From NCBI GenBank assembly GCA_036526235.1, contig DATCYX010000360.1:1-32455 (forward strand): 32,455 nucleotides of DNA. Direction: 5' to 3'. Shown piece after piece: positions 409 through 20,549 of this stretch (positions are counted from its first letter, which is position 1; every line of letters begins with the position of its first letter). A program made the position numbers and the translations under genes. Under the pieces are notes generated by a model. The model saw only the letters and a list, made by a program, of their open reading frames with translations, searched no databases and was not told the DNA's origin. The stretch comes from Anaerolineales bacterium. GTDB taxonomy: Bacteria > Chloroflexota > Anaerolineae > Anaerolineales > UBA4823.

Positions 409-1062
409 TTACTCGCGCCGGACAATACCTTCCTGCCAGGCGTAAACTGCGGCCTGGGTGCGATCGGCGAGGTGAAGTTTGCTCAAGATATTACTGACAT
501 GGCCTTTGACAGTGCCAATGCTGATGACCAACTCATCTGCGATTTTCTGGTTAGTAAAGCCTCTGGCAATCAATGTCAGCACTTCGACTTCTCGCTCGGT
601 GAGTTCTGTAAAAAGGGTGCTACGTTCAGGTTCCCCATGGCTGAATTGCTTGATCAGGCGGGCCGCAACTCTGGGATGCAGTGTTGCCTCCCCTTTGGAG
701 GCCCGTTGAATGGCTTCGACCAATTCCTGAGCCTTGACATCCTTGAGCAAATAGGAAATCGCACCGGCCTGGAGCGCCGGGAAAATATGCTCATCTTCAT
801 GGAAGGAGGTCAGTATGATGATCTGTGTGCGCGGGCTGATGTCCTTCACTTTGCGGGTGGCTTCCACACCGTCCATGCCGGGCATGACCAGGTCCATAAG
901 TACAACATCCGGAATATATTCGCGGGCCAGGCGCACAGCCTCTATCCCCGATTCGGCTTCCGCCACCACTGCGATCTCAGGCTGCGCTTCCAGGTATCCT
1001 TTGGCCCCATTGCGCACCATTTCATGGTCATCCACGATCATGACTGTGATTGGTTCTTGCAT
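409..1062 (-). CDS. Two-component response regulator, NarL/FixJ family (REC domain plus LuxR-type HTH)
   Basis: 217 aa. REC motifs are VMIVDDHEMV, the phospho-acceptor context VVLMDLVMPGMDG, and LTSF...K. The C-terminal part LTEREVEVLTLIARGFTNQKIADELVISIGTVKGHVSNILSKL is a LuxR/GerE HTH. Its start codon directly abuts the stop of the upstream kinase gene. Confidence 0.95.
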   Translation of the reverse strand: MQEPITVMIVDDHEMVRNGAKGYLEAQPEIAVVAEAESGIEAVRLAREYIPDVVLMDLVMPGMDGVEATRKVKDISPRTQIIILTSFHEDEHIFPALQAGAISYLLKDVKAQELVEAIQRASKGEATLHPRVAARLIKQFSHGEPERSTLFTELTEREVEVLTLIARGFTNQKIADELVISIGTVKGHVSNILSKLHLADRTQAAVYAWQEGIVRRE

Positions 1063-2586
1063 TTACGGCCTCCTCCACCCCTCGGTTGGGATCGTTAGAC
1101 AGACTTTCGTTCCTTGCCCAGGTTCGCTTTGGATGCTGAAATCACCCATGAGCGATTCCACCCGCTCACGCATCGAATCAAGCCCCATACCATCATGCGG
1201 CTGTTGGGTGTCAAACCCTTTGCCATCATCACTGATGCAGAATTCAACTGAATAATTTCCAAAACGCATTGTAACATCAACGCTTTTCGCTGAGCTATGT
1301 TTGGCCACGTTCGCTAACGCTTCCTGCATGATTCGGTAAATGGCTTGTTTGACCTCCAGAGATAAATCGACGAATCCATCCACATCCAGGGTCGCTTCGA
1401 TACCGGTTTGGTGGGCCCACTCAATGACATATTCATTGAGGGTTTCATCAAAACGCGCGCCGTTCATTGACGGTGGTCGCAGTTCATGGATCAAATCGGT
1501 CAACTCCACCCGCACCGAATCCACCAGAGTATCGGCTTTCACCAAATGGTTTTTTGCCGATTGGGGATCGCGCTCGAAAAGCGTCAAGGCCGTCCCCAAA
1601 TGAAAGGAGGCAGCTAGGGCTTCTTGCTTGGCACTGTCGTGCAGGTCGCGCGCCAGGCGGTTGCGCTCTTCAGAAACAGCCATCTCCTGGCTTCTTTTGA
1701 GGAACTGCTGGAGTTGTTCCGCCATTTGGTTGAGACGTACTGCCATTGTACTGATTTCATCGCCAGTAGGATCCTCGATAAATTCAGAAAAATCGCCTTG
1801 GCTCCAGGCATCGGTCACCTGCGAAACTCGTCGTAAGCGCAGAACCATACCACGGGCCGTCAGGGAGCCAAAAATAGTTCCAACCAGACCGGCAGCTAGC
1901 AACAAGATCAAGACACTCTGTCCCAACAATATGGTTAGGGTTTCTGGGATATCATTGGCGGTTGGCAAATGCTCTATGTAAATGATCACAACCCCCAAAA
2001 CCTCTTGATCATCTTCATTCTTTACAGGGATCGCAAAATAAAAACGTTCGTGTGGTTCAAGGGTGATGAATATCCGCTCTGGATCAACTTCTCCATTAAA
2101 GGCTGCTGTCAGGGCACCGTCCAGACCAGGGAAAGTCCCCCTATCAAGCGGTTGTCCGACTACAGCTCCAGGAACAAGATGCGGATTGTTGAGTCCAAGC
2201 AGATTTCCTTCTTTATCGAGGAGAATAGTGCTTCCCCGTCCCTCTGTCCTTAACCGGATTTGAAAGTCGCCGATTTGAAATATTTCGAGCTCTGTAATGG
2301 TTAATTCACCCCCTTCCAGTATGTCTGCGATCAAATCTGTATCGATGGGGTCTTGCCTGTAAATAAGGCGCATTATGGCAGTGCCATTTTCGCTGATAAC
2401 CCTAATCCATTCTTCGGGCGTGAGCGCGCGATTATAGATCTCGATCGGAATAAAAGCCCTTGAAAACATTAGGTACCCTAGAATTAACACAACAACGAAC
2501 AAAGAGCCTACGGTAACCGCGGAATAGCTCAGTGTTAACTTCCACTGTAAGAGGCGAAATGATGGAATTATCTTCTTGAAAAACAT
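1063..2586 (-). CDS. Sensor histidine kinase, HisKA_3 (NarX/LiaS-type), with two TM helices, an extracytoplasmic domain and a HAMP linker
   Basis: 507 aa. TM1 is LSYSAVTVGSLFVVVLILGYLMF and TM2 is LTILLGQSVLILLLAAGLVGTIFGSL, flanking a ~175-aa loop. A HAMP-like segment follows. The H-box is ERNRLARDLHDSAKQ. HATPase_c motifs are EALANVAKHS, DDGKGF and GMGLDSMRERVESLMG. AGGAGGA lies 4 nt upstream of the ATG (complement of 2591-2597). Confidence 0.9.
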   Translation of the reverse strand: MFFKKIIPSFRLLQWKLTLSYSAVTVGSLFVVVLILGYLMFSRAFIPIEIYNRALTPEEWIRVISENGTAIMRLIYRQDPIDTDLIADILEGGELTITELEIFQIGDFQIRLRTEGRGSTILLDKEGNLLGLNNPHLVPGAVVGQPLDRGTFPGLDGALTAAFNGEVDPERIFITLEPHERFYFAIPVKNEDDQEVLGVVIIYIEHLPTANDIPETLTILLGQSVLILLLAAGLVGTIFGSLTARGMVLRLRRVSQVTDAWSQGDFSEFIEDPTGDEISTMAVRLNQMAEQLQQFLKRSQEMAVSEERNRLARDLHDSAKQEALAASFHLGTALTLFERDPQSAKNHLVKADTLVDSVRVELTDLIHELRPPSMNGARFDETLNEYVIEWAHQTGIEATLDVDGFVDLSLEVKQAIYRIMQEALANVAKHSSAKSVDVTMRFGNYSVEFCISDDGKGFDTQQPHDGMGLDSMRERVESLMGDFSIQSEPGQGTKVCLTIPTEGWRRP

Positions 2587-2842
2587 TTTCCTCCTAAGAA
2601 ATTATCGTTTAGGAAAAAAGAGTAATCAGTTATTATTAGTATACCGAAAAAGGTGATTTGATTAATATGACCAGAGACCTGTTTTTTCCCGCACCACAGA
2701 TAGATTTCCGATCTACGATCTAGATGATTGAGTTATTCCAAATCAGCTGGTCTCTACAGGGCTGATGTTCATCTTGTGACTTAGCAGACCTATATTAGGA
2801 TTCCTCACTTAGCACTATGTTTTCTCCTAATTCTAGGGAAGG

Positions 2843-2876
2843 GGGTGGTTCGGAACTCATCCGCTACGGGTCACCT
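2843..2876 (+). repeat. Copy A of a 30-nt conserved hairpin-forming repeat (core 2845-2874)
   Basis: The core GTGGTTCGGAACTCATCCGCTACGGGTCAC matches 4526-4555 at 27 of 30 positions. On the plus strand it folds into a 10-bp stem (2843-2852 with 2867-2876, including G-U pairs) and a 14-nt loop GAACTCATCCGCTA. It is preceded by a purine-rich tract TAGGGAAGGGG. Confidence 0.6.
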
Positions 2877-3265
2877 ATATGTGGGGGGTAAGCCTGCGGA
2901 AAAAGCGCTACCGTGATCATTTACTGATAGTGGTTGGTATCAATACAGCGCTTCGCATTTAGGACTTACAGCAGTTGCGCATTGGGCATTTCATCGACGA
3001 CCACAAACGGATGATGCAGTGGTTTTGGATCAAGGAGCAGAAACTTTACAAGCGTCATGAAGTTGTAATCAACCAGGGCATTTATGAAGCATGGTTAGTA
3101 AATATTTTTATGAAGTATAATTGCGGGACTTTCTCAAAGATGGATAACAGATTATCCAGATAGTTCAGGCTGTCAACATATTTTAGATCACCTGCTGACG
3201 ACCAGTATCCAATCGTGTCAGACCAAGCTTTATCCCTCTTAATTTCGAAAACTGGAGAATGAGTT

Positions 3266-3646
3266 ATGAACCTGAAGAATATGTTTGCCACCAGCGCAAT
3301 TGTCGCGATCCTGCTTGGACTGGGACTTATCCTGGTACCGGTGCCGTTAATGACTGCAAGGACTGGTCATCCCCCTGATGTTCTGACCGCTCATGTTGCC
3401 AGGCAGTTTGGTATTGCCATGCTAGCCGCAGGAGTAATCTCTTGGATGGCGCGCCGCACAACTGATTCGACTGCTCGCAACGCTATTGTAGTTGGCTTAG
3501 CCTTGCTATACGTGCTGTTACCCATCGAGACTGCCATCTCAATTGTGCGTGGCTCAGAAAGCGCCGAAGGCTTCGTATTGGTAGTCGTTTTTGGGATACT
3601 GGCTGTCGGTTTCATACTGTTAGGCAAACCAAGATTGACCTTCTAA
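3266..3646 (+). CDS. Small integral membrane protein (about four TM helices), function unknown
   Basis: 126 aa. GGAG lies 9 nt upstream of the ATG. There are four hydrophobic stretches (AIVAILLGLGLILVPVPL, FGIAMLAAGVISWM, AIVVGLALLYVLLPI, FVLVVVFGILAVGFILL). I recognise no family signature. Confidence 0.6.
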   Translation: MNLKNMFATSAIVAILLGLGLILVPVPLMTARTGHPPDVLTAHVARQFGIAMLAAGVISWMARRTTDSTARNAIVVGLALLYVLLPIETAISIVRGSESAEGFVLVVVFGILAVGFILLGKPRLTF

Positions 3647-3657
3647 AGAGACAACCA

Positions 3658-3891
3658 ATGGAAATCACACCCAAAACAAAAGTATCCGATATCCTGGAAG
3701 AATACGGTGATATCGCTGATGTGATGGAGATATTTGGCATCAAGCGCGTGGCGCGCTACTCATTCCGAAAGATGCTAACCAAAGCTTTGACGGTTGAGGT
3801 GGCTGCGCGTGTGCACAGGGTCCCACTTGATGAATTCCTGGAAACACTGAATAACGCTATTGAAATGCGTGCGAAGAATCAAGAGCCATGA
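3658..3891 (+). CDS. DUF1858-like small protein, cysteine-less variant
   Basis: 77 aa, starting 11 nt after the upstream gene. ITPKTKVSDILEEYGDIADVMEIFGI...TVEVAARVHRVPLDEFLETLNNA aligns by eye with the DUF1858 pattern (I.....I.E.L..YP....V....G..C.GC.....TLEEAA..HG.DL..LL..LN). The CxxC position reads RVAR. Confidence 0.6.
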   Translation: MEITPKTKVSDILEEYGDIADVMEIFGIKRVARYSFRKMLTKALTVEVAARVHRVPLDEFLETLNNAIEMRAKNQEP

Positions 3892-4040
3892 GACGGCGCC
3901 GAAGCGATCTCTAGATCACATGTGGGGGACAACCTAGCGGCTAAGCATTCTTCATCAAGGACAGGCACCTTTGCCATATCCACCGAACCAGTCCAGACTG
4001 GCGCGGTCGCCCTCCTCGACCAGTTCGAACCTACACCTGA

Positions 4041-4190
4041 GCGCCCAATGTGAACACAGGTTTTACGCACCTTGCCGGGCTGGTTAACCTCCGCAAGCTA
4101 AACCTCCGTTTCACGAAGGTTGCCGATACCGGGGTTGGCAAGCTGCAGAAAGCATTGCCGAACTGTAAGCTATTTAAGGAAACCTTATGA
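4041..4190 (+). pseudogene. Orphan C-terminal fragment of a leucine-rich-repeat protein
   Basis: The open frame after the TGA at 4038-4040 reads APNVNTGFTHLAGLVNLRKLNLRFTKVADTGVGKLQKALPNCKLFKETL*. LxxLxxLxLxxTxVxDxGxxxLxxALPNCK is a typical terminal LRR unit. There is no start codon or upstream repeats in frame (stop at 3942-3944 in the same frame). Its TGA overlaps the ATG of the next remnant (ATGA). Confidence 0.35.
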
Positions 4191-4417
4191 AATTTACACC
4201 AATCGATTGGAAAACTTGGCCTCGTGGTTAATACTTTGATGTCCACTTCAATAAAGTACCAAACATATTCAGCATGACAGTAAACATCGATATTTCCACA
4301 TTGCTTGAAGCAGTGAAAGATATTGGCATTATTGATGGCTTTCATCTTCCTGGGTTTTTGAATGAGTTGCAGAGTACGGTTGATTATTTGGCAATCACAA
4401 ATTTCGGTAGTAAATAA
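4187..4417 (+). pseudogene. Chloramphenicol-acetyltransferase (classical CAT, type A) family remnant with a premature stop and an internal deletion
   Basis: It reads MKFTPIDWKTWPRG*YFDVHFNKVPNIFSMTVNIDISTLLEAVKDIGIIDGFHLPGFLNELQSTVDYLAITNFGSK*. The N-terminal 45 codons match the CAT N-terminus pattern (M.F..ID...W.R...F..Y......FS.T..IDIS.L....K). DGFH..FLNELQ matches the CAT C-terminal catalytic segment (HHAVCDG(F/Y)H....NELQ). About 140 central codons are missing, and an in-frame TAA sits at 4229-4231. Confidence 0.55.
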
Positions 4418-4523
4418 TTCAAAAAAGATAACGCCAGCATAATTTGACGACTCGTGATTTTGAGACCAAGATTCTTGAAAATGTAACACGTTCGTAACTT
4501 ATTACCCTTAGAAAGAGGCATGG

Positions 4524-4557
4524 GTGTGGTTCGGAACTCATGCGCTATGGGTTACAC
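4524..4557 (+). repeat. Copy B of the 30-nt hairpin-forming repeat (core 4526-4555)
   Basis: The core is GTGGTTCGGAACTCATGCGCTATGGGTTAC. The stem pairs 4524-4533 with 4548-4557 and the loop is GAACTCATGCGCTA. Two of the three core substitutions relative to copy A turn G-C pairs into G-U pairs, and the flanking stem pair G-C in A is U-A in B (compensatory). It is preceded by a purine-rich tract TTAGAAAGAGG. Confidence 0.6.
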
Positions 4558-4733
4558 GAAGAACCGCAAGATGTTGTCGAGCAGTTTTTGTTTGTGGTAC
4601 GGATGTTTCGATAATGGGTGATCCAGAACGGTGATAGGGTGGTAAGCATTCTTTTCTCTCCTCAGTGGTGGGAAATCGCCCAAATGCGATTGCCCTATTC
4701 AAATGGTCGTCTGGGGAGTGGAGAGAAATGTAA

Positions 4734-4742
4734 TGCTATAAT
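4734..4742 (+). promoter_or_regulatory. Candidate extended -10 promoter element (TGcTATAAT) for the STAND operon
   Basis: A perfect TATAAT at 4737-4742 has TG at 4734-4735. There is no good -35. It lies ~50 nt upstream of the ATG at 4795. Pattern match only. Confidence 0.3.
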
Positions 4743-4794
4743 CCTCCAAGCTGTTATTTACTACCGCACATTCTGGGTTTGAAAGGTAAGAACT

Positions 4795-7700
4795 ATGCCG
4801 GAATCTGTACTGAGTTTTCAATCGCTGCCCCAGGAATACCAACAAGTTATTCAGCTCGCGGAAGATCGATATGGGATCGCCATTGCCCCGCTCCAAGAAT
4901 TGGCCGGTGGGTGGTCGGGAGCAATCATTTACCTGGTGCGCGTCGCTTCCACAGATTCCAAAAAAGTGGAACACCTAATCCTGAAGCTTGACCGCAAACG
5001 GACGATGTCGTCTTCCGATGAAGTCTCCCGACATAAAAAGGTACAGCAGATTTCCCCCTCTGAGTTCACCAATCTGCACATCCCCGAAATGGCTTACGAT
5101 CAGGTTGAAGCTGAGAATGCCCTGGCGATTTTTTATACGATAGCTGGCCAATCGCTGCACAATTTCCTCACGCTCTCAAGCCACCAGCGCCAGAGCCACA
5201 TTGAAACCTTGTTCTCAGCGACCAACCACATATTGCTGGATAGCTGGAATGCAGGTCTGACATTTGAGCAGATTGATCACCCCCGGGATCTGCTGCAGAA
5301 GTGGCTGGGGTTTCGTCTGGATGCGGGTCAGAATATTGAGATTTTCTTAAGCGAGGTCTGTCAGTTGCCCCCCAATATCCCGGGTTTCATCGTCCAGGGT
5401 AATATCCTCCCAAATCCGCTGTACTATGCGCGAAATATCGATGCCTGGACCTCAGTCAGGGCTGGGGATGCTATGGTCGGGCTGCAGCACAGCGATTTAA
5501 ACACGAACAATATCCTGGCCAAGTTTTCACGACAGGGGGATGAATTAGAAGGCTACTACCTGATCGATTTTGCCCTCTTCAAAGAGAACATGCCACTACT
5601 GTATGATCAACGCTACCTGGAGATGTCTTATCTGACCCATACGATCTCGCAGGGGATCTATAACAGCGTGGTAGGCCTGATCTGCCGGTATGGGGAGCAG
5701 GACATCCTGGAGCCCGATCAAACAGCGATCGAAATGACTGGTGTCAATGCAGCCATACGTGCAGGGCGGATCGCCTTTGGAGACTGGGTACGGGAAAACC
5801 ATCCCAGCTTGCATGACGACTTGTGGGGTCAATACTGGCTTGCAGGAACAGCGGCAGGGTTGAGCTACTGCCACAAAGCGGGTCAGGCCGATGGAATACG
5901 ACTGGCGGGGCTGATTTATGCCTCCGCCAACCTGAAGCAGTATTTTAAGTTATTTGGTCTTCCCATGCCCACCGGTGCCAGCCAGTTGTACGCCGAAGGT
6001 CAGATCGGGGGCATGCCCGCAGCAGGCTTCACGCTGGCTTCCCCGGCTAGAAAACCGAACCATAATTTGCCAGCACCGCCGACGAACTTCATCGGCCGGA
6101 CGGCTGAACTGGCTGAGTTAACCGATTTGCTGCTTCGTCCGGAGGTGCGGCTGGTTTCGTTGACAGGGCCGGGTGGGACGGGAAAAACCCGCCTGAGCCT
6201 GGAAGCAGGCAGAGCTTTGCTGGACCGCTTTCCCCAAGGTGTGTATTTCGTTGACCTGGCGCAAATCAACGATCCGTCACTGGTTTCGGCAACCACCGCT
6301 CACACGATCGGGATCCGTGAAGGCGGAGGTCGACCGCCATTAGAGACTTTGAAAGACTACCTGGCTGGCAGAGGAATGCTCCTGATTTTCGATAATTTCG
6401 AACAAGTCGTTGGAGCTGCCGCGGACATCTCGCAGCTGCTCGCCGCTGCTCCTGGGATCAAAGCGTTGGTCACCAGTCGAACCCCTTTGCACCTGCGCGG
6501 GGAGCATGAATACCCAGTCTCCCCTCTGGACATGCCCCCGGATGCATACCAATCTATTGACCAGGCTATTAAATATGAAGCGGTGGCTCTTTTTCGGCAG
6601 CAAGCCAGGACTGTCCAGCCAGCATTCGATCTTACAGAGGACAACCGTGCTGCGGTCATAGAGATCTGCCGCCGCCTTGATGGTCTTCCACTGGCGATCG
6701 AGATCGCCGCCGCCCGCATCAAGATGCTCTCCCCCCAGGCATTACTTGACCGCCTGGACCACAGCTTGAGCCTGCTGGTGGGAGGAGCCAAGGATTTACC
6801 CAACCGGCAGCAAACCTTGCGCGGGACCATCGACTGGAGTTATGAATTGCTCCAACCTGTGGAACAGATCCTCTTCACACGATTGGGAATCTTTGCCGGG
6901 GGGTTCACCCTGAATGCTGCAGATGAAATCTGCAAACCGATGGGCGAAGTGGACGTTTTTTCTGGTGTTGAGACGCTTCTAAATAACAGCTTGCTTCGCC
7001 AGGTCCATTCGGCCAGCAGTGAGCCACGCTTCGACATGCTTCAGACGATTCGCGAGTACGCATTGGAAAAAGCAGCAGAAGCCGGCATAATGACCGAGCT
7101 TCAATGGGCTCACTGTGGCTATTATTCACGAATGGCGGCGGCTGCAGGAAATTTGGGCGAAGGGAGTTTTGGCGCCCATTCTGTGATTTGGCTGCAGCGC
7201 TATGAAGAAGAATATGATAATTTCCGTGTGGCCCTCTCCTGGGGAATAAAGCATCCTGAAGAAGGCTTCCCACTGGTGATTGCGATGATGAATCAGCTGG
7301 CCTGGTTCTGGTACCGCTATGGTTACTTGCAAGAGGGCAGTGAATGGACCGAACGCAGCCTGGCGGCTACACAAGGGATGGGTGATTCGCCGGCGCGCGC
7401 CTGGGCGCTAGTCGGGCGCGCATATCTGGCTTTGTGGTCAGGCGACCTGTTGATTGCCGCGCGATATGGGCGGGAAGCTGTGGAAATGTGCCAACGGATA
7501 AGCTTTGACCTTGGCTTATCCCTGGCTAAACTAACCTTCGGGACGACATTGATCAATCAAGGCAAGGACAGAGAAGCCTATCCCCACCTGGTGGATGCGG
7601 TCGAGCTCTATGACCAGCAGGATCAACCCTGGATGAAAGGAACAGCCTTGGTCCACCTAGCCAATGTGTCCCTTGGATTAGGCGATCCAGAGCAGGCCAC

Positions 7701-8253
7701 CCAATGGTTGGATATGGCCATGCCATTCTTGTTGAATTCTGGTGATGTATGGGCAATGGCTTTCGGATTGAATAACTACGGAGAAGTTGCTCGAGCCCAG
7801 GGGGACTATGATAGAGCAGAAGATTTCTACCGGCGAACCGACGAATTGTACAAGCAGGCGGATGCAAAAGGCGACCAGGCACGTCTTCTACACACATTCG
7901 GCTACATTGCCCAGCATAAGGGTGATCTTAATGGGGCACGCTCGTTATTCTTGGAGAGCCTTAATGATTTTCGAAAATTGGGCAACCATCGCGGTATCGC
8001 AGAATGCCTGGCTGGCCTGGCTGGTCTGGGAGCAATACAAGGAAAACATGAGTGGGCCACACCTTTGTTGAGCAGCGCGGAGAGCCAGCTTAAGGCGATT
8101 GGCGGCGCCTGGTGGCCTGCAGACCGGGTAGAAATTGAGCGGGCGAGAGAGCGCCTGCGAGCCGCTCTCGACGACCGCTTTGATGAGCTCTGGGAGCAAG
8201 GCCAATCTATGGGTGTTGAAGAGGCGATTGCCTACGCCACGAATGAGGCGTAA
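4795..8253 (+). CDS. Tripartite STAND NTPase: N-terminal protein-kinase-like (APH/choline-kinase type) domain, NB-ARC-type P-loop NTPase, C-terminal TPR array
   Basis: 1152 aa. The kinase-like part has GGWSGAIIYLV (res 38-48), K64 in ILKLD, HSDLNTNNIL (res 232-241, nt 5488-5517) and YLIDFA (D258). The NTPase has Walker A GPGGTGKT (res 458-465, nt 6166-6189), Walker B MLLIFDN (528-534) and LDGLPLAIE (628-636, the GLPL motif of NB-ARC/AP-ATPases), followed by LFTRLGIFAGGF (winged-helix region). Res ~800-1150 are repeated helical A/L/G/Y/W-rich units typical of TPRs (for example GDYDRAEDFYRRTDELYKQ and GDLNGARSLFLESLNDFRKLG). Confidence 0.85.
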   Translation: MPESVLSFQSLPQEYQQVIQLAEDRYGIAIAPLQELAGGWSGAIIYLVRVASTDSKKVEHLILKLDRKRTMSSSDEVSRHKKVQQISPSEFTNLHIPEMAYDQVEAENALAIFYTIAGQSLHNFLTLSSHQRQSHIETLFSATNHILLDSWNAGLTFEQIDHPRDLLQKWLGFRLDAGQNIEIFLSEVCQLPPNIPGFIVQGNILPNPLYYARNIDAWTSVRAGDAMVGLQHSDLNTNNILAKFSRQGDELEGYYLIDFALFKENMPLLYDQRYLEMSYLTHTISQGIYNSVVGLICRYGEQDILEPDQTAIEMTGVNAAIRAGRIAFGDWVRENHPSLHDDLWGQYWLAGTAAGLSYCHKAGQADGIRLAGLIYASANLKQYFKLFGLPMPTGASQLYAEGQIGGMPAAGFTLASPARKPNHNLPAPPTNFIGRTAELAELTDLLLRPEVRLVSLTGPGGTGKTRLSLEAGRALLDRFPQGVYFVDLAQINDPSLVSATTAHTIGIREGGGRPPLETLKDYLAGRGMLLIFDNFEQVVGAAADISQLLAAAPGIKALVTSRTPLHLRGEHEYPVSPLDMPPDAYQSIDQAIKYEAVALFRQQARTVQPAFDLTEDNRAAVIEICRRLDGLPLAIEIAAARIKMLSPQALLDRLDHSLSLLVGGAKDLPNRQQTLRGTIDWSYELLQPVEQILFTRLGIFAGGFTLNAADEICKPMGEVDVFSGVETLLNNSLLRQVHSASSEPRFDMLQTIREYALEKAAEAGIMTELQWAHCGYYSRMAAAAGNLGEGSFGAHSVIWLQRYEEEYDNFRVALSWGIKHPEEGFPLVIAMMNQLAWFWYRYGYLQEGSEWTERSLAATQGMGDSPARAWALVGRAYLALWSGDLLIAARYGREAVEMCQRISFDLGLSLAKLTFGTTLINQGKDREAYPHLVDAVELYDQQDQPWMKGTALVHLANVSLGLGDPEQATQWLDMAMPFLLNSGDVWAMAFGLNNYGEVARAQGDYDRAEDFYRRTDELYKQADAKGDQARLLHTFGYIAQHKGDLNGARSLFLESLNDFRKLGNHRGIAECLAGLAGLGAIQGKHEWATPLLSSAESQLKAIGGAWWPADRVEIERARERLRAALDDRFDELWEQGQSMGVEEAIAYATNEA

Positions 8254-8258
8254 TCGCT

Positions 8259-9083
8259 GTGAGTGAGCCAATCATCGGCGTCGGCTTCACAGGTGAACTG
8301 AGCTTGCGGGTCAGCGTGGCCACGCTTTCGCGGGTCGTCTTCCCCCATCCGGAGGGCGGAGTCCCAATGATCGCGCTGGAGCATAAAGCTACCCTGGCTG
8401 CTGGAGAGGCTGACAGGGTAGATGTGAAAGCCCAGCCGTTTGGGGGGGCTATCCGAATATTAAATCCCAACCGGCTTTTGACACTCCTGGGCAGCTTCAA
8501 CTTCGACAGCCAACGATCGCGTTCCGAGCAAGATTTCCGGGTCTATATCCGCCCCTCGAGCTGGGAAGAAGTGCGCGAATTCTGCCTGCAGAATATGGAT
8601 CAGGAAGCGGGTCCAGACCTTGAAATAGATCCTTCCAGGGAATTGGAGGAAGAGTTCGATGATGCGCTGGGGATCCAGCTCAAGTTAAACCAATACGTTG
8701 TGAAGCCGTTCGGCATCGTGGTGGAAAATGAACCGGCCCCCACAACCAACGTGCGTGCTACTGGCAACCTAACCGCCCGGATCTACCGGGTTTACGAAGT
8801 GCAGATCCAAGACCCGGCCCTGTGGCGATTGATGGTGGCCAACAGCCATACACACCCCAAACAGATCTTGCAGAGATTGGCGTTAGACGATTCTCAAAAA
8901 GGCGGGCGAGGCAGGGCGACCGCCATGCTGGTGGCTGCGGAGCAGGAGATTCGCGCCGCCTATTCGGCTCTACCCCCGGAGATGCTGGGCATGCCGCTGG
9001 CATTCGCAGGCACGGTCCTGGATGGGAACGTGCCTGCGATATTGAAGGGTATTTCTGTACCGAAATATCGATACCTTCGCTAG
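8259..9083 (+). CDS. Hypothetical protein with a degenerate Nudix-like signature, close-coupled to the STAND gene
   Basis: 274 aa. The GTG start lies 5 nt after the STAND stop, with GAGG ~10 nt upstream. An alternative ATG at 8367 has GGAG 5 nt upstream. QPFGGAIR (res 59-66) and SRELEEEFDDALGI (res 126-139, nt ~8634-8675) resemble the PGG and REUXEE parts of a Nudix box, but with an insert of ~60 aa and non-canonical spacing. The beta-rich flanks (IIGVGFTGELSL, TARIYRVYEVQIQD) fit a Nudix-type fold. The fold assignment is unverified. Confidence 0.55.
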   Translation: MSEPIIGVGFTGELSLRVSVATLSRVVFPHPEGGVPMIALEHKATLAAGEADRVDVKAQPFGGAIRILNPNRLLTLLGSFNFDSQRSRSEQDFRVYIRPSSWEEVREFCLQNMDQEAGPDLEIDPSRELEEEFDDALGIQLKLNQYVVKPFGIVVENEPAPTTNVRATGNLTARIYRVYEVQIQDPALWRLMVANSHTHPKQILQRLALDDSQKGGRGRATAMLVAAEQEIRAAYSALPPEMLGMPLAFAGTVLDGNVPAILKGISVPKYRYLR

Positions 9084-17647: not shown

Positions 17648-19075
17648 ATGATGATGAATTGGAACCAAAGCTCAGATGATTTTGTAGAACTTATCCACCA
17701 AAAATCTGCCGAAATCCTTGCTGAGGTTGGTTTCTGCGCCCCTGATAAAACAATGCTATCGCGCCTTATGGCAGCTGGTTTCCCCGTTAACGAAGATACC
17801 CACATGGTTCGCATCCCTGAGGAGTTGATGAAGGCGGCACTTGAGGCGCTCCCCAAAGATGTGAAGCTCTATTATCGGGGCAGTCAACAAGCCGTAGATT
17901 TTGGACGTGGATCTTTATTCATGGGCGCTGGCACGCCGGTCAGCGTGCAGGACCTAAAAACCGGGGACCGCCGTGATGCCACCCGAAGTGATGTGCGTAA
18001 CCTCGTAACTATACAGGATGCTTTGCCACAGGTTGATATCGTCCGGCCAACGGTAACGGCAACTGATATGGGTGCGTGCTCCGATTTGGTAGAAATTGCT
18101 GAACTTTTGATGCATACAGAAAAGCCGGTGGTCCACCGTACGCTATCACCAGACCGCGTTGAAGCGGCGGTAGAAATGTTGGCAGCAGTAGCTGGGGGAT
18201 ATGAGGCTTTACGGGCGTACCCAAACTTTGCTACCTTGTACTGTCCTATAAGCCCGGGTTATTTCACGCCCGAGAATATCCGCTGTATGCTCAAATGGGC
18301 TGAGTTTGGGATACCGATTACTTTGCTGAGCATGGCGATGGGAGGGGCTTCTGCTCCGGCTACTCTTTTGGGGGAACTGCTGGTTATCAATACAGATATA
18401 TTGGCCTGGATCGTCGTTCTAGAGATCCTTTACCCTGGCACGCCGCTATTGTATGGCAGCGTTTCGGCTGTCCTTGATATGCGGACAGGTATTTTACCCC
18501 TAGGCGCGCCAGAACGAGGCATGGTCAACAGTGGTGCCGCGATCATGGGGCATTATTATGGTATCCCTTCTATGTGCGGAGGCTTATCCTCGGATGCAAA
18601 AGAATTAGACGCACAAGCAGGTTTTGAAAAGGCGGTCACGGCAGTGCCTTTGCTTATGGAAGGCGCGAGCATCATCTACGGTGTAGGCGCGGTAGATGCC
18701 GGTTCAGCGATCTCTTACAGCGAGATGGTTATGGATGACGAGTTTATCGGAGCCCTACGCAGGATGATGCAGGGTATTGCGATTCATGACCTGGATGAAG
18801 AAGTTGAGCTTATCAAACGTCTCACACCAAGAGGTAATTTCCTGAAAGAAAAACACACCCGCAAAAACTACCATGAACACTGGCAACCGCATCTCTTAAA
18901 CCGCGAAGCCTATGATACCTGGGCAATTGATCGCAAGACGGTAGCGCAAAAAGCTCGTCAACGAGCTGAAAACATCCTGCAACAACATCAACCAAAACCA
19001 TTGCCTGTAAAAGCCGAAGCAGAGATTGAACGTATCCTCAGCCGTTACTTAGTGGTAGCGGAGGGTTCGCCGTGA
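17648..19075 (+). CDS. MttB-superfamily corrinoid methyltransferase, no pyrrolysine codon, subgroup B
   Basis: 475 aa. It starts 7 nt after the lrp stop. Family pattern: VGFCAPDKTMLSRLMAAGFPVNEDTHMVRIPEELMKAALEALPK, LDMRTG, SSDAKELDAQAGFEKA, C-terminal GNFLKEKHTRKNY. It lacks the subgroup-A blocks. Confidence 0.85.
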   Translation: MMMNWNQSSDDFVELIHQKSAEILAEVGFCAPDKTMLSRLMAAGFPVNEDTHMVRIPEELMKAALEALPKDVKLYYRGSQQAVDFGRGSLFMGAGTPVSVQDLKTGDRRDATRSDVRNLVTIQDALPQVDIVRPTVTATDMGACSDLVEIAELLMHTEKPVVHRTLSPDRVEAAVEMLAAVAGGYEALRAYPNFATLYCPISPGYFTPENIRCMLKWAEFGIPITLLSMAMGGASAPATLLGELLVINTDILAWIVVLEILYPGTPLLYGSVSAVLDMRTGILPLGAPERGMVNSGAAIMGHYYGIPSMCGGLSSDAKELDAQAGFEKAVTAVPLLMEGASIIYGVGAVDAGSAISYSEMVMDDEFIGALRRMMQGIAIHDLDEEVELIKRLTPRGNFLKEKHTRKNYHEHWQPHLLNREAYDTWAIDRKTVAQKARQRAENILQQHQPKPLPVKAEAEIERILSRYLVVAEGSP

Positions 19076-19097
19076 ACTCCCTATATAGGAGTAACTA

Positions 19098-20549
19098 TTG
19101 GTTGAGATCCAACCCATAAAGTCGATATATCCCTTCGAAGCGCTTGATGCTGATCAGCTTGCATGCATAAAGGATGCAACGTTGTACGTGCTAGACAAGG
19201 TTGGTGTGCGTTTTCCATCCGAAAAAGCCCTGAGGATATTTGACGAGCATGGTGCGAATGTGGATTTTGAGACCAAGATTGTATGCATGCCCCCGGATTT
19301 GGTTTTGGAGTCGATGGGCAAAGCTCCCCGAAATTACACCCTCTCTGGACGCGCCGAGGGGACAGACCTTTATCTGGGCAATGGCTACTCTTACTTTTCG
19401 ACCGATGGCTGCGGACACGAGACCCTGGATTTCGAGACCGGCGAAAGACGTCTATCGTGTAAAGAAGATGTAGCCAAAATGGCATGGGTCTGCGATTATC
19501 TTTCTTCGATTGCCTTTTATTGGCCAATCGTCAGCGCTCAAGATTTTGGCCAGCTGGCACCTCTGCATGAGATCGATGCAGCTTTTAATAATACGGTCAA
19601 ACATGTCCAGACCGAAACGGTTATGGGCATGGGAATGGCTAAATACGCAATCAGGATGGCAGAGGTGGTTGCCGGTGACATGGAATCCCTGAGAGAGGCC
19701 CCTGTGCTTTCCAGCCTTATTTGCACAATTGCTCCATTGAGCCAGGATCGGGAAGGCATTGAAGGGGCAATGGTCTTTGCTGAAGCAGGGATACCGGTTG
19801 GGTTTATGGGGATGCCCAATATGGGATCAACCGCGCCAGCTGTGCCGGGAGGGGCCTTGGTGGTGGCAAACGCCGAAACAGTGAGTGCGATGGTTCTTAT
19901 GCAGCTGGTGGCACCTGGCGCCCCGGTTTTCCAATCCATCCTGGTTTCCGGTATGGATCCACAATCGGCGGATTATATCGTCAGCTCGCCGGAGAAGTAT
20001 TTGTGCAATGTGGCAGCTGTACAAATAGCGCATGATTGGGGTGTGCCATCGCTGGCGGGTACCTTTGGTGTGGACTGCCCAGAACCAGCTAGCTGGCAAT
20101 TAGGACGGGATAGCGTCTACACCGCTTTGCTGACTGCATTGGCTGGGACGGATATAACGATTGGTTTAGGAATGCTAAAAGCATCTACCTTGCTGGTTCC
20201 TGAGCAGATTATCTTTGATGACGAGATTTACCATATTCACCGTGTGCTTGCCCGGGGATTGGATATTCGGGAGTCGAGCTTGGCTGTTGATGTCATTGAA
20301 GCTGTGGGTCCAGCTGGACATTTCCTGCGTCAAAAACACACGCGAACGAATATTCGAGAACGGTGGATACCCAAATTGACTCACCCTTCTCCATCGATGG
20401 ATGGGACAACAACGCCGCATATACGCCTGCGGGCTAAGGCAGAATTCGATCGAATACTAAAGCAACACCAACCCGAGCCCCTTAGCGATCGAAAACAGCA
20501 GGAACTTAGAACTATCATCGAGATCGCGCAAAATGACATTGGAATCTGA
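19098..20549 (+). CDS. MttB-superfamily corrinoid methyltransferase, no pyrrolysine codon, subgroup A
   Basis: 483 aa. The TTG start has AGGAG 7 nt upstream. Motifs are FYWPIVSAQDFGQLAPLHEIDAAFNNTVKHVQTET, LICTIAPLSQD and VGPAGHFLRQKHTR. It is a clear paralog of the ORFs at 10665 and 26946. Confidence 0.85.
   Translation: MVEIQPIKSIYPFEALDADQLACIKDATLYVLDKVGVRFPSEKALRIFDEHGANVDFETKIVCMPPDLVLESMGKAPRNYTLSGRAEGTDLYLGNGYSYFSTDGCGHETLDFETGERRLSCKEDVAKMAWVCDYLSSIAFYWPIVSAQDFGQLAPLHEIDAAFNNTVKHVQTETVMGMGMAKYAIRMAEVVAGDMESLREAPVLSSLICTIAPLSQDREGIEGAMVFAEAGIPVGFMGMPNMGSTAPAVPGGALVVANAETVSAMVLMQLVAPGAPVFQSILVSGMDPQSADYIVSSPEKYLCNVAAVQIAHDWGVPSLAGTFGVDCPEPASWQLGRDSVYTALLTALAGTDITIGLGMLKASTLLVPEQIIFDDEIYHIHRVLARGLDIRESSLAVDVIEAVGPAGHFLRQKHTRTNIRERWIPKLTHPSPSMDGTTTPHIRLRAKAEFDRILKQHQPEPLSDRKQQELRTIIEIAQNDIGI

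Follow-up and report, generated by a model that had tools for sequence, protein, structure and literature searches.

We describe here a two-gene module located at positions 4795 to 9083 of a 32,455-nucleotide (nt) stretch of DNA from an Anaerolineales bacterium (Chloroflexota; assembly GCA_036526235.1, contig DATCYX010000360.1), the whole of which is referred to below as the window. The first gene of this 4.3-kb module (4795-8253, plus strand) encodes a protein of 1152 amino acid residues (aa) in which an N-terminal protein-kinase-like domain is followed by an NB-ARC-type STAND NTPase and C-terminal TPR repeats; the second (8259-9083, plus strand) encodes a soluble, Nudix-like hydrolase of 274 aa. 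As far as the tools used here show, the module is a conserved, two-gene variant of the NLR-like STAND proteins endowed with an undescribed two-enzyme output. An earlier note, made from the letters of the window, had delineated the two open reading frames (ORFs), the 5-nt gap between them and a series of catalytic motifs, all of which were found again in the translations at the same residues.

Pairing and distribution of the two genes

Evidence that the two genes belong together came from scans started from either side of the module. The scan on the Nudix side, which considered one genome per GTDB species, yielded 67 loci, all from metagenome-assembled genomes (MAGs), in which the large gene was sought by tblastn with its three parts. 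Two of these loci begin within the gene and could not be judged. Sixty-three of the 65 testable Nudix-like genes were located directly downstream of a kinase-STAND gene and on the same strand, including two seemingly STAND-less loci that were counted as paired because their TPR protein is cut by the end of the contig. A Nudix-like gene standing on its own was only seen in L026 (Actinomycetota) and L069 (Margulisiibacteriota; 33% identity). On the kinase side, a scan of metagenomes retrieved 80 loci, 43 of which held at least 3.3 kb of downstream DNA. A Nudix-like gene came right after the STAND gene in 34 of these 43 loci, and in 34 of 39 upon exclusion of a cyclase-containing subfamily described below. 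Four of the nine exceptions belong to that subfamily (L099, L101, L117 and L119), a second kinase-STAND paralogue immediately follows the first in L099 and L128, and unrelated genes lie downstream in the remaining ones. An alternative partner for the Nudix-less kinase-STAND genes was considered and rejected, the downstream ORFs being mutually unrelated or encoding proteins with ordinary Pfam domains or none. The coupling is asymmetric, in that the Nudix gene is nearly never found without a kinase-STAND gene, while the latter sometimes occurs without a Nudix gene.

All-against-all clustering of the ORFs from 72 loci returned the same two genes as the only recurrent families, present in 71 and 68 loci. 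No third conserved gene was found in the 72 loci, the remaining clusters consisting of antisense shadow ORFs or generic families, nor was any regulatory or biosynthetic operon found to be conserved around the orthologues, the setting that the earlier note had named as telling against an NLR-like module. The pair mostly occurs in Chloroflexota (Anaerolineales, Promineifilaceae, Flexifilum, Brevefilum), with further representatives in Actinomycetota, Gemmatimonadota, Bacteroidota, Thermodesulfobacteriota and Margulisiibacteriota, making at least six phyla in all, and more than 100 loci were found to encode full-length homologues of the large protein. In four MAGs, the module is present twice, the two copies lying on different contigs. 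Tandem kinase-STAND paralogues are found in L099, L100 and L128, the gene order in L100 being STAND, Nudix and another kinase-STAND; a single Nudix gene might serve two such tandem kinase-STAND genes, the loci ending before the next gene. The proposal of the earlier note that the two genes form a functional pair thus finds support in a near-obligate synteny, maintained over at least six phyla.

In the window, the TAA stop codon of the large gene (8251-8253) is followed, after 5 nt, by the GTG start codon of the Nudix-like gene, and a Shine-Dalgarno-like GAGG element is present at 8245-8248, inside the 3′ end of the large gene and 10 nt before this GTG. Because of the 5-nt spacing and of the GAGG upstream of the GTG, translational coupling of the two genes across this junction (8245-8258, plus strand) appears plausible; the gene junctions in homologous loci are also short or overlapping. 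Both start codons, ATG in the case of the large gene and GTG in that of the Nudix-like gene, are supported by homologues sharing the same N-termini. Searches around the module revealed no Rfam element and no convincing candidate for a promoter or terminator. The terminal 80 nt of the Nudix-like gene contain, at 9004-9039, an inverted repeat of 15 nt (93% complementary, 6-nt loop) with no T-run behind it.

Not all homologous loci share the exact architecture of the window module. About twenty encode large proteins of 1260-1520 aa with a longer C-terminal region. In L031, L039, L060 and L061, the identity of the kinase domain (45-47%) reflects ordinary divergence, while that of the NTPase drops to 33-36%, with NACHT/nSTAND1-type Pfam matches, and the C-terminal region is a different one of ~500 aa devoid of Pfam match. 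All four loci retain the Nudix gene and, because it is kept despite the exchange of both NTPase and C-terminal region, the kinase domain and the Nudix protein are the constant partners of the system. In a sister subfamily, the kinase and STAND modules are separated by a class III adenylate/guanylate cyclase domain that looks intact. Members of this subfamily are L031 (3420-7973), L099, L101, L117 and L119, together with the truncated L090, L094, L098, L116 and L147. The Nudix-like gene is not directly downstream in four of the five members with enough DNA; L031 has one.

Domain composition and active sites of the two proteins

The N-terminal protein-kinase-like domain of the large protein (aa 1-405; 4795-6009, plus strand) was delineated from Pfam profiles and conserved catalytic residues. 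Its motifs comprise a G-loop, GGWSGA (aa 38-43); ILKLD (aa 62-66), with the beta3 lysine K64 (nt 4984-4986); a catalytic loop, HSDLNTNNIL (aa 232-241; nt 5488-5517), with D234 and N239; and LIDFA (aa 256-260), which holds D258, the equivalent of the DFG aspartate (nt 5566-5568). In a Pfam scan of the full-length window protein, TCAD9 (PF19974; E 1.7e-9) and, weakly, EcKL were matched over residues 202-280. The TCAD9 score amounted to 37.8 bits in the full protein and 41.7 bits for the N-terminal 420 aa alone (gathering cut-off, 40), and reached up to 63.7 bits in homologues. Because the catalytic core alone of the TCAD9 profile aligns (approximately positions 265-381 of 429, with about 70-110 positions aligned), we treat the domain as belonging to a TCAD9-related lineage rather than as a clear TCAD9 member. 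The kinase domains of 24 relatives submitted to the same type of scan all matched TCAD9 and EcKL, 16 of them matched APH (aminoglycoside phosphotransferase) and 13 matched Kdo; the Hanks-type Pkinase model was matched by none. The similarity to APH is weak, with a best E of 1.6e-4.

Conservation was assessed in an alignment of 104 sequences, namely the window protein and 103 unique full-length homologues. K64, E76, H232, D234 and D258 are invariant in this alignment, as is G39 of the G-loop, while N239 and G42 are each present in 103 of the 104 sequences. On the strength of its motifs (G-loop, beta3 Lys, alphaC Glu, HxDxxxxN and DFG-equivalent Asp), all of which are present, and of its profile matches, we assign the domain to the APH/EcKL/Kdo branch of the protein-kinase-like superfamily. 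It shares its motifs and, by prediction, its fold with these enzymes, but whereas they stand alone, the present domain is the N-terminal module of an 1152-aa STAND protein and carries a conserved helical extension of ~150 aa that has no sequence match in the PDB. More generally, sequence and profile searches of PDB sequences with both proteins of the module yielded no meaningful match. In the open-access literature consulted, TCAD9 itself is mentioned only as a vWA-MoxR-VMAP-associated domain (PMC10910872) and in lists of protein-kinase-like families, including KINtaro-based work.

The NB-ARC-type STAND NTPase (aa ~431-800; 6085-7194, plus strand) displays a Walker A motif, GPGGTGKT (aa 458-465; nt 6166-6189), a Walker B motif, MLLIFDN (aa 528-534; nt 6376-6396), a sensor-1 TSR motif (VTSR) with R562, and a GLPL motif, LDGLPLAIE (aa 628-636; nt 6676-6702). 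Pfam matches to AAA_16 (E 3.9e-7), AAA_22 and, weakly, NB-ARC (E 0.012) cover residues 431-563 of the window protein, the E-value for NB-ARC falling to 1e-10 in homologues. G461, K464, T465, N534 and R562 are invariant in the 104-sequence alignment. Judging by these motifs and profiles, the middle part of the protein is an NB-ARC-type STAND NTPase. Since the active-site residues of both the kinase and the NTPase are invariant in homologues, the two domains appear to be under selection as working enzymes. The C-terminal TPR repeat region (aa ~801-1152; 7195-8250, plus strand), the presumed ligand sensor, matches TPR_12 (E 1.2e-17) and TPR_MalT (E 5.4e-10) over residues 920-1103. Over the 59 complete loci, median identity to the window was 57.6% for the kinase, 51.8% for the STAND module, 44.1% for the TPR region and 50.7% for the Nudix-like protein; of these four parts, it is the TPR region, the presumed, fast-evolving sensor, that has diverged most. 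Matches of the STAND-TPR part to NCBIfam models (AfsR, HaaT, NsdA and FxSxx-TPR regulators) are partial only. No DNA-binding domain, be it of LuxR, SARP or any other type, was detected in Pfam and NCBIfam scans of the window protein, and the sole helix-turn-helix-type match in homologues, HTH_77, presumably corresponds to the winged helix within the STAND core. The profile searches thus agree with the three-part reading of the large protein given in the earlier note, namely an APH/EcKL-type rather than Hanks-type kinase, an NB-ARC STAND module and TPR repeats.

The second protein belongs to a family of 'hypothetical proteins' of ~275 aa (577 matches). Its sole Pfam match is a weak one to Sa_NUDIX (PF18167; E 0.012, 16 bits for a cut-off of 25), in which residues 57-186 align to profile positions 28-151; 26 of 48 family members match the same profile at E<0.1, the best at E 2.6e-5. 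Modelled by AlphaFold2 with a 48-sequence alignment, the protein reached a pLDDT of 93.3 and a pTM of 0.90, the single-sequence model being unusable (pLDDT 36). Comparison of the model with the PDB by Foldseek returned Nudix hydrolases for all of the top 50 matches, among them NUDT17, ADP-ribose pyrophosphatases, RppH, AvrM14, NudI and CFIm25, albeit with a best E of 4.7e-3, probabilities of at most 0.96 and TM-scores of 0.2-0.44 only. Nudix proteins also dominated the matches of the model in a viral structure library. Taken together, the model and the Sa_NUDIX matches support the Nudix-like nature that the earlier note had ascribed to this protein, the fold of which is predicted to be that of a strongly derived Nudix domain.

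The GG loop of the protein, QPFGGAIR (aa 59-66; nt 8433-8456), lies with G62 and G63 some distance (64 residues) ahead of the Nudix helix, SRELEEEF (aa 126-133; around nt 8634-8669). The ~60 residues in between are predicted to fold into two helices, followed by a strand and one more helix. The spacing of the canonical Nudix box, GX5EX7REUXEEXGU, is thus lost, the box being split and the E at X5 missing, while the REUXEE helix is intact and canonical (R127-E128-L-x-E131-E132). Among 91 unique homologues (33-70% identity), G62, G63, R127, E128, E131 and E132 are invariant, as are E41, D92, R94 and Y176. E130 is a variable position of the helix; the pair of glutamates numbered E129/E130 in the earlier note corresponds in fact to E131/E132. 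The description of the protein as degenerate, also found there, holds for the ~60-aa insert between GG loop and helix, but not for the catalytic helix. Because R127-E128-x-x-E131-E132 is invariant in homologues, the protein is derived rather than degenerate in its catalytic part, with its metal-binding glutamates intact. The Sa_NUDIX profile appears to contain a stretch comparable to the insert, since 130 residues of the protein align to 124 profile positions.

Neither a transmembrane helix nor any other hydrophobic segment was found in the 274-aa protein. When 1.84 billion representatives were scanned in full with HMMER, a compact, separate family of 256 clusters emerged, with no fusion of the Nudix-like domain to a STAND protein among them. 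The sole apparent fusion of any kind is P0291, a lysine-rich metagenomic protein of 855 aa that carries the Nudix-like domain in its middle (37% identity), between flanks without Pfam match; a CYTH-Nudix-CYTH arrangement suspected from its sequence was not supported by Pfam. P0332 has the appearance of an assembly chimera.

Distant homologues and surroundings of the module

Distant homologues of the kinase domain were encountered on plasmids. An 833-aa 'phosphotransferase' from plasmid NZ_CP065360.1 of the cultured strain Ruegeria sp. SCSIO 43209 (L158, 7974-10475; hhalign E 1.8e-41) combines a full-length homologue of the kinase domain with a C-terminal half of ~430 aa; the genes annotated up to 8 kb away from it in both directions include no Nudix gene. 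The other, a 739-aa protein, is encoded by plasmid NZ_CP109010.1 of Streptomyces sp. NBC_00690 (L159, 7851-11163; hhalign E 2.1e-12). The gene that follows it is annotated as 'S-4TM family putative pore-forming effector'; this single data point associates another TCAD9-like kinase with another SMODS-associated effector family. The C-terminal half of the Streptomyces protein looks beta-propeller-like by eye, and genes for a 1225-aa TPR protein and for IS3 transposases lie near that of the Streptomyces protein.

Upstream of the module, the window contains the genes of a two-component system in divergent orientation (409-2586, minus strand) and, after them, a poorly coding segment of 2.2 kb with a low GC content (2587-4794; GC 0.45). 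Downstream of it are catabolic genes on the minus strand, encoding a class III aminotransferase, an MttB-family methyltransferase and a DAO-GCV_T oxidase. The poorly coding stretch is bracketed by two copies of a 40-nt direct repeat (2835-2874 and 4516-4555; 85% identical, core GGTGGTTCGGAACTCATCCGCTACGGGT), present exactly twice in the window for a chance expectation of none, the similarity of the two copies ending at ~40 nt. Located between them are, within 3266-3891, a 126-aa hydrophobic ORF without Pfam match and a 77-aa ORF. The segment 3892-4790, described in the earlier note as a gene-decay zone, is devoid of any ORF with a family match; a 46-aa ORF at 4050-4190 (LAGLVNLRKLNLRFTKVADTGVGKLQKALPNCK) resembles, by reading alone, a leucine-rich-repeat fragment. 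Apart from this upstream 40-nt repeat, the window shows no repeats around the module, and none flanking it that would be indicative of a mobile insertion. Further away, ARAGORN predicted a tRNA-Tyr with the unusual anticodon ATA at 19048-19123, which occupies the short gap separating two long ORFs (17648-19075 and 19098-20549), overlaps the ends of both and may be a false positive.

The surroundings of the homologous modules vary with the lineage and include transposases in L001, flagellar FHIPEP genes in L152 and MFS/GntR genes in L154. About 4 kb downstream of the module in L003 and L153, a metallo-beta-lactamase (MBL)-fold gene that is part of an ABC-transporter operon matches the Pfam family of the anti-Pycsar protein Apyc1, weakly in L003 and without the 'weak' flag in L153; the match probably reflects no more than the shared MBL fold.

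Possible roles of the module

Several known systems share parts of this architecture. Antiviral STAND proteins of the Avs/bNACHT type likewise combine an N-terminal enzymatic effector, a STAND NTPase and a C-terminal repeat sensor, and paralogue expansion and sensor divergence are common to both. The present module, known from its genes alone, differs from them by its NTPase of the NB-ARC/AfsR-like clade, its APH/EcKL-type kinase effector, its separate and near-obligate Nudix gene, and its location outside of any defence-island context. The vWA-MoxR-VMAP ternary systems carry TCAD9, the Pfam family to which the N-terminal domain of the module is most similar, and, as the module does, mainly occur in bacteria that are multicellular or filamentous. 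For these systems, Kaur, Burroughs, Iyer and Aravind described in 2020 an apparently active APH-superfamily kinase effector with proposed low-molecular-weight substrates (PMC7159879), which we infer to be TCAD9. Here, in contrast, the kinase is fused to STAND-TPR and its TCAD9 alignment is confined to the catalytic core; moreover, no vWA, MoxR AAA+ or VMAP gene was found among the window neighbours or the recurrent families of the 72 loci, nor do the three figure in the leading Pfam families of 148 proteins encoded on the flanks of 77 loci.

The small protein for its part resembles Cap16 of CBASS and the 2TM-Sa_NUDIX proteins associated with UG23 reverse transcriptases, settings in which Sa_NUDIX occurs (PMC10419184, PMC9226505), in being a derived Nudix protein whose Nudix helix is preceded by a long insert; it differs from them in that it is soluble, scores below the Pfam cut-off and forms a compact family of its own. 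Neither a reverse transcriptase gene nor a CD-NTase (SMODS) gene is found nearby in the window; the lack of the latter, together with that of a third conserved gene in the 72 loci, indicates that the module is not a CBASS. The AfsR, MalT and cyclase-STAND-TPR signalling proteins have in common with the large protein an NB-ARC and MalT-like TPR core and, as far as its sister subfamily is concerned, a class III cyclase. They differ from it in that the SARP or LuxR DNA-binding domain of AfsR and MalT is missing here, the output being a kinase-like enzyme with a Nudix partner. From its gene content and domains, the module would thus qualify neither as CBASS, vWA-MoxR-VMAP or a STAND system known to PADLOC, nor as a MalT/AfsR regulator. 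Its two enzymes are borderline members of Pfam families whose definition goes back to conflict systems. That the earlier note had recognized no named system is in line with this outcome. In the open-access literature on TCAD9, SMODS, STAND, CBASS, Cap16 and Nudix, no description of a kinase-STAND/Nudix pairing was found, and the text of the eLife 2020 supplement mentions neither TCAD9 nor Nudix.

The reading that we tentatively put forward, while giving it somewhat less than an even chance, is that of a self-contained NLR-like immune module whose output is the kinase and whose Nudix protein acts as a modulator. Activation of STAND/NLR proteins proceeds from ligand binding at the repeats to nucleotide exchange, oligomerisation and the proximity-induced activation of the N-terminal domains. 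In the present case, binding of a ligand to the fast-evolving TPR region would release autoinhibition, whereupon the NB-ARC module would exchange its nucleotide and oligomerise. The N-terminal kinase domains, once clustered, would become active and phosphorylate what is probably a nucleotide-type substrate of low molecular weight, a protein being the less probable target. APH/EcKL-type kinases act mostly on small molecules and Nudix enzymes cleave nucleoside-diphosphate-X (NDP-X) compounds; because of these family tendencies, both enzymes of the module may be expected to act on the same nucleotide-linked metabolite. The Nudix partner would most likely hydrolyse the NDP-linked product or substrate of the kinase and thereby set the threshold of the switch or reset it, much as a safety catch. 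We prefer the role of modulator, be it as safety catch, as reset or as second step, over that of sole executioner for the Nudix protein because the coupling of the two genes is asymmetric and kinase-STAND paralogues occur in tandem.

Conflict or immunity is suggested alike by the architecture, the family pedigree, the paralogy, the patchy phylogeny and the divergence of the sensor. Considering the first two in particular, a role in inter-genomic conflict or immunity of filamentous bacteria, whether with the kinase or with the Nudix protein as executioner, may be judged fairly probable. The step from there to immunity as opposed to physiological signalling is nonetheless the weakest of our reading, and a number of observations weigh against it. 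PADLOC v2, including its Avs1-5 and bNACHT models, matched the large protein with no more than a generic TPR model and left the small one without any match. The 148 flanking proteins of the 77 loci are of ordinary housekeeping or transport type, and no Pfam family occurred more than four times in this set (MFS, HATPase_c, methyltransferases, PQQ, GNAT and similar families). PADLOC matches among these proteins at E<=1e-10 were limited to mad2 and mad3 (three each), AriA-like models (two and one) and three further models found once each, so that, in raw counts taken without background genes, no enrichment in defence-island, transposase or integrase genes was apparent. In L002-L004 and L153, the module even occupies a syntenic position next to ABC/PQQ and sugar genes, indicative of a fixed site in one lineage. 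The impression of an accessory defence locus conveyed by the earlier note was therefore not borne out by this wider set of neighbours. In addition, no relative of the module was found on IMG/VR viral contigs, and the plasmids of PLSDB yielded no relative of the Nudix-like protein and, for the kinase domain, two distant homologues but no close one. The cyclase-bearing paralogous subfamily tips in the same direction, a cyclase placed between effector and STAND module being a layout typical of physiological signalling STAND proteins. Finally, the direction of the kinase-Nudix relationship is itself something that we infer.

These points, namely housekeeping neighbourhoods, stable synteny, absence from mobile elements and a cyclase-bearing sister subfamily, are those expected of a physiological signalling STAND protein, in which the TPR region would sense a metabolite or protein of endogenous or environmental origin, the NB-ARC module would switch on a small-molecule kinase and the Nudix protein would help adjust a nucleotide-linked pool. 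Such a metabolic or developmental regulator of filamentous bacteria would be an analogue of MalT/AfsR or of the cyclase-STAND-TPR proteins with an enzymatic instead of a DNA-binding output, and the best, if partial, NCBIfam matches of the large protein are indeed to regulators of this kind. We nevertheless hold this explanation to be somewhat unlikely, for the module has no DNA-binding or other classical regulatory output and no conserved target operon, both partner domains stem from families otherwise reported in conflict systems, and NLR-like immunity is where tandem paralogues, multi-copy genomes, a patchy spread across phyla and a sensor that evolves fast would more typically be met.

The roles of the two enzymes could also be reversed, with the Nudix protein as an executioner that depletes NAD(H), (d)NTPs, CoA or other NDP-X compounds or decaps RNA, and the kinase as its activator, either through direct phosphorylation of that protein or through a phosphorylated nucleotide messenger to be bound by the Sa_NUDIX-like protein in a position comparable to that of the ligand sensor in Cap16. 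The report of Sa_NUDIX proteins as effectors in CBASS and UG23 systems, the invariance of the Nudix catalytic residues, the presence of S-4TM, another SMODS-associated effector family, beside a distant kinase homologue, and the fact that the Nudix gene is nearly never alone, as expected of an effector in need of an activator, are all compatible with this arrangement. It would, however, leave ~13% of the cyclase-free and most of the cyclase-containing kinase-STAND genes without effector, and mutation of the NUDIX domain of Cap16 did not abolish toxicity (PMC10419184), leaving the family without precedent for killing by the Nudix domain; we thus regard it as unlikely, though not negligibly so. 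A response to xenobiotics or antibiotics, in which an APH-like phosphotransferase would inactivate a toxin sensed by the TPR-STAND part with the Nudix protein as auxiliary detoxifier, draws on the placement of the kinase domain in the APH/EcKL/Kdo branch of small-molecule kinases. With an APH similarity as weak as that reported above, no efflux or resistance genes conserved nearby and no resistance phosphotransferase fused to a STAND switch described in the sources consulted, it strikes us as highly improbable.

A more specific and distinctly speculative reading, which we would not expect to hold, is that of a STAND-embedded pathway where the kinase makes a phosphorylated nucleotide (or NDP-X) messenger or toxin and an enzyme of the Sa_NUDIX family reads or destroys the product. 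If true, this pathway would be a kinase-based counterpart of CBASS and Thoeris, with the kinase in place of the CD-NTase and paired with SMODS-linked effector or receptor families, namely Sa_NUDIX in the present module and S-4TM beside the distant Streptomyces homologue.

The NLR-like STAND protein is a design used universally for sensing within cells, and the kinds of output that it drives are a matter of active inquiry. The module described here would add to these outputs an intact small-molecule-type kinase acting with a dedicated Nudix hydrolase, two enzymes whose families have so far come from computational catalogues of conflict systems or from among CBASS effectors. As a compact pair with all of its catalytic residues identified, it makes the chemistry of a STAND output directly testable. 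Should its function be immune, it would represent a defence system of filamentous Chloroflexota missed by current detection tools; should it be physiological, it would represent a STAND regulator with an unusual enzymatic output.

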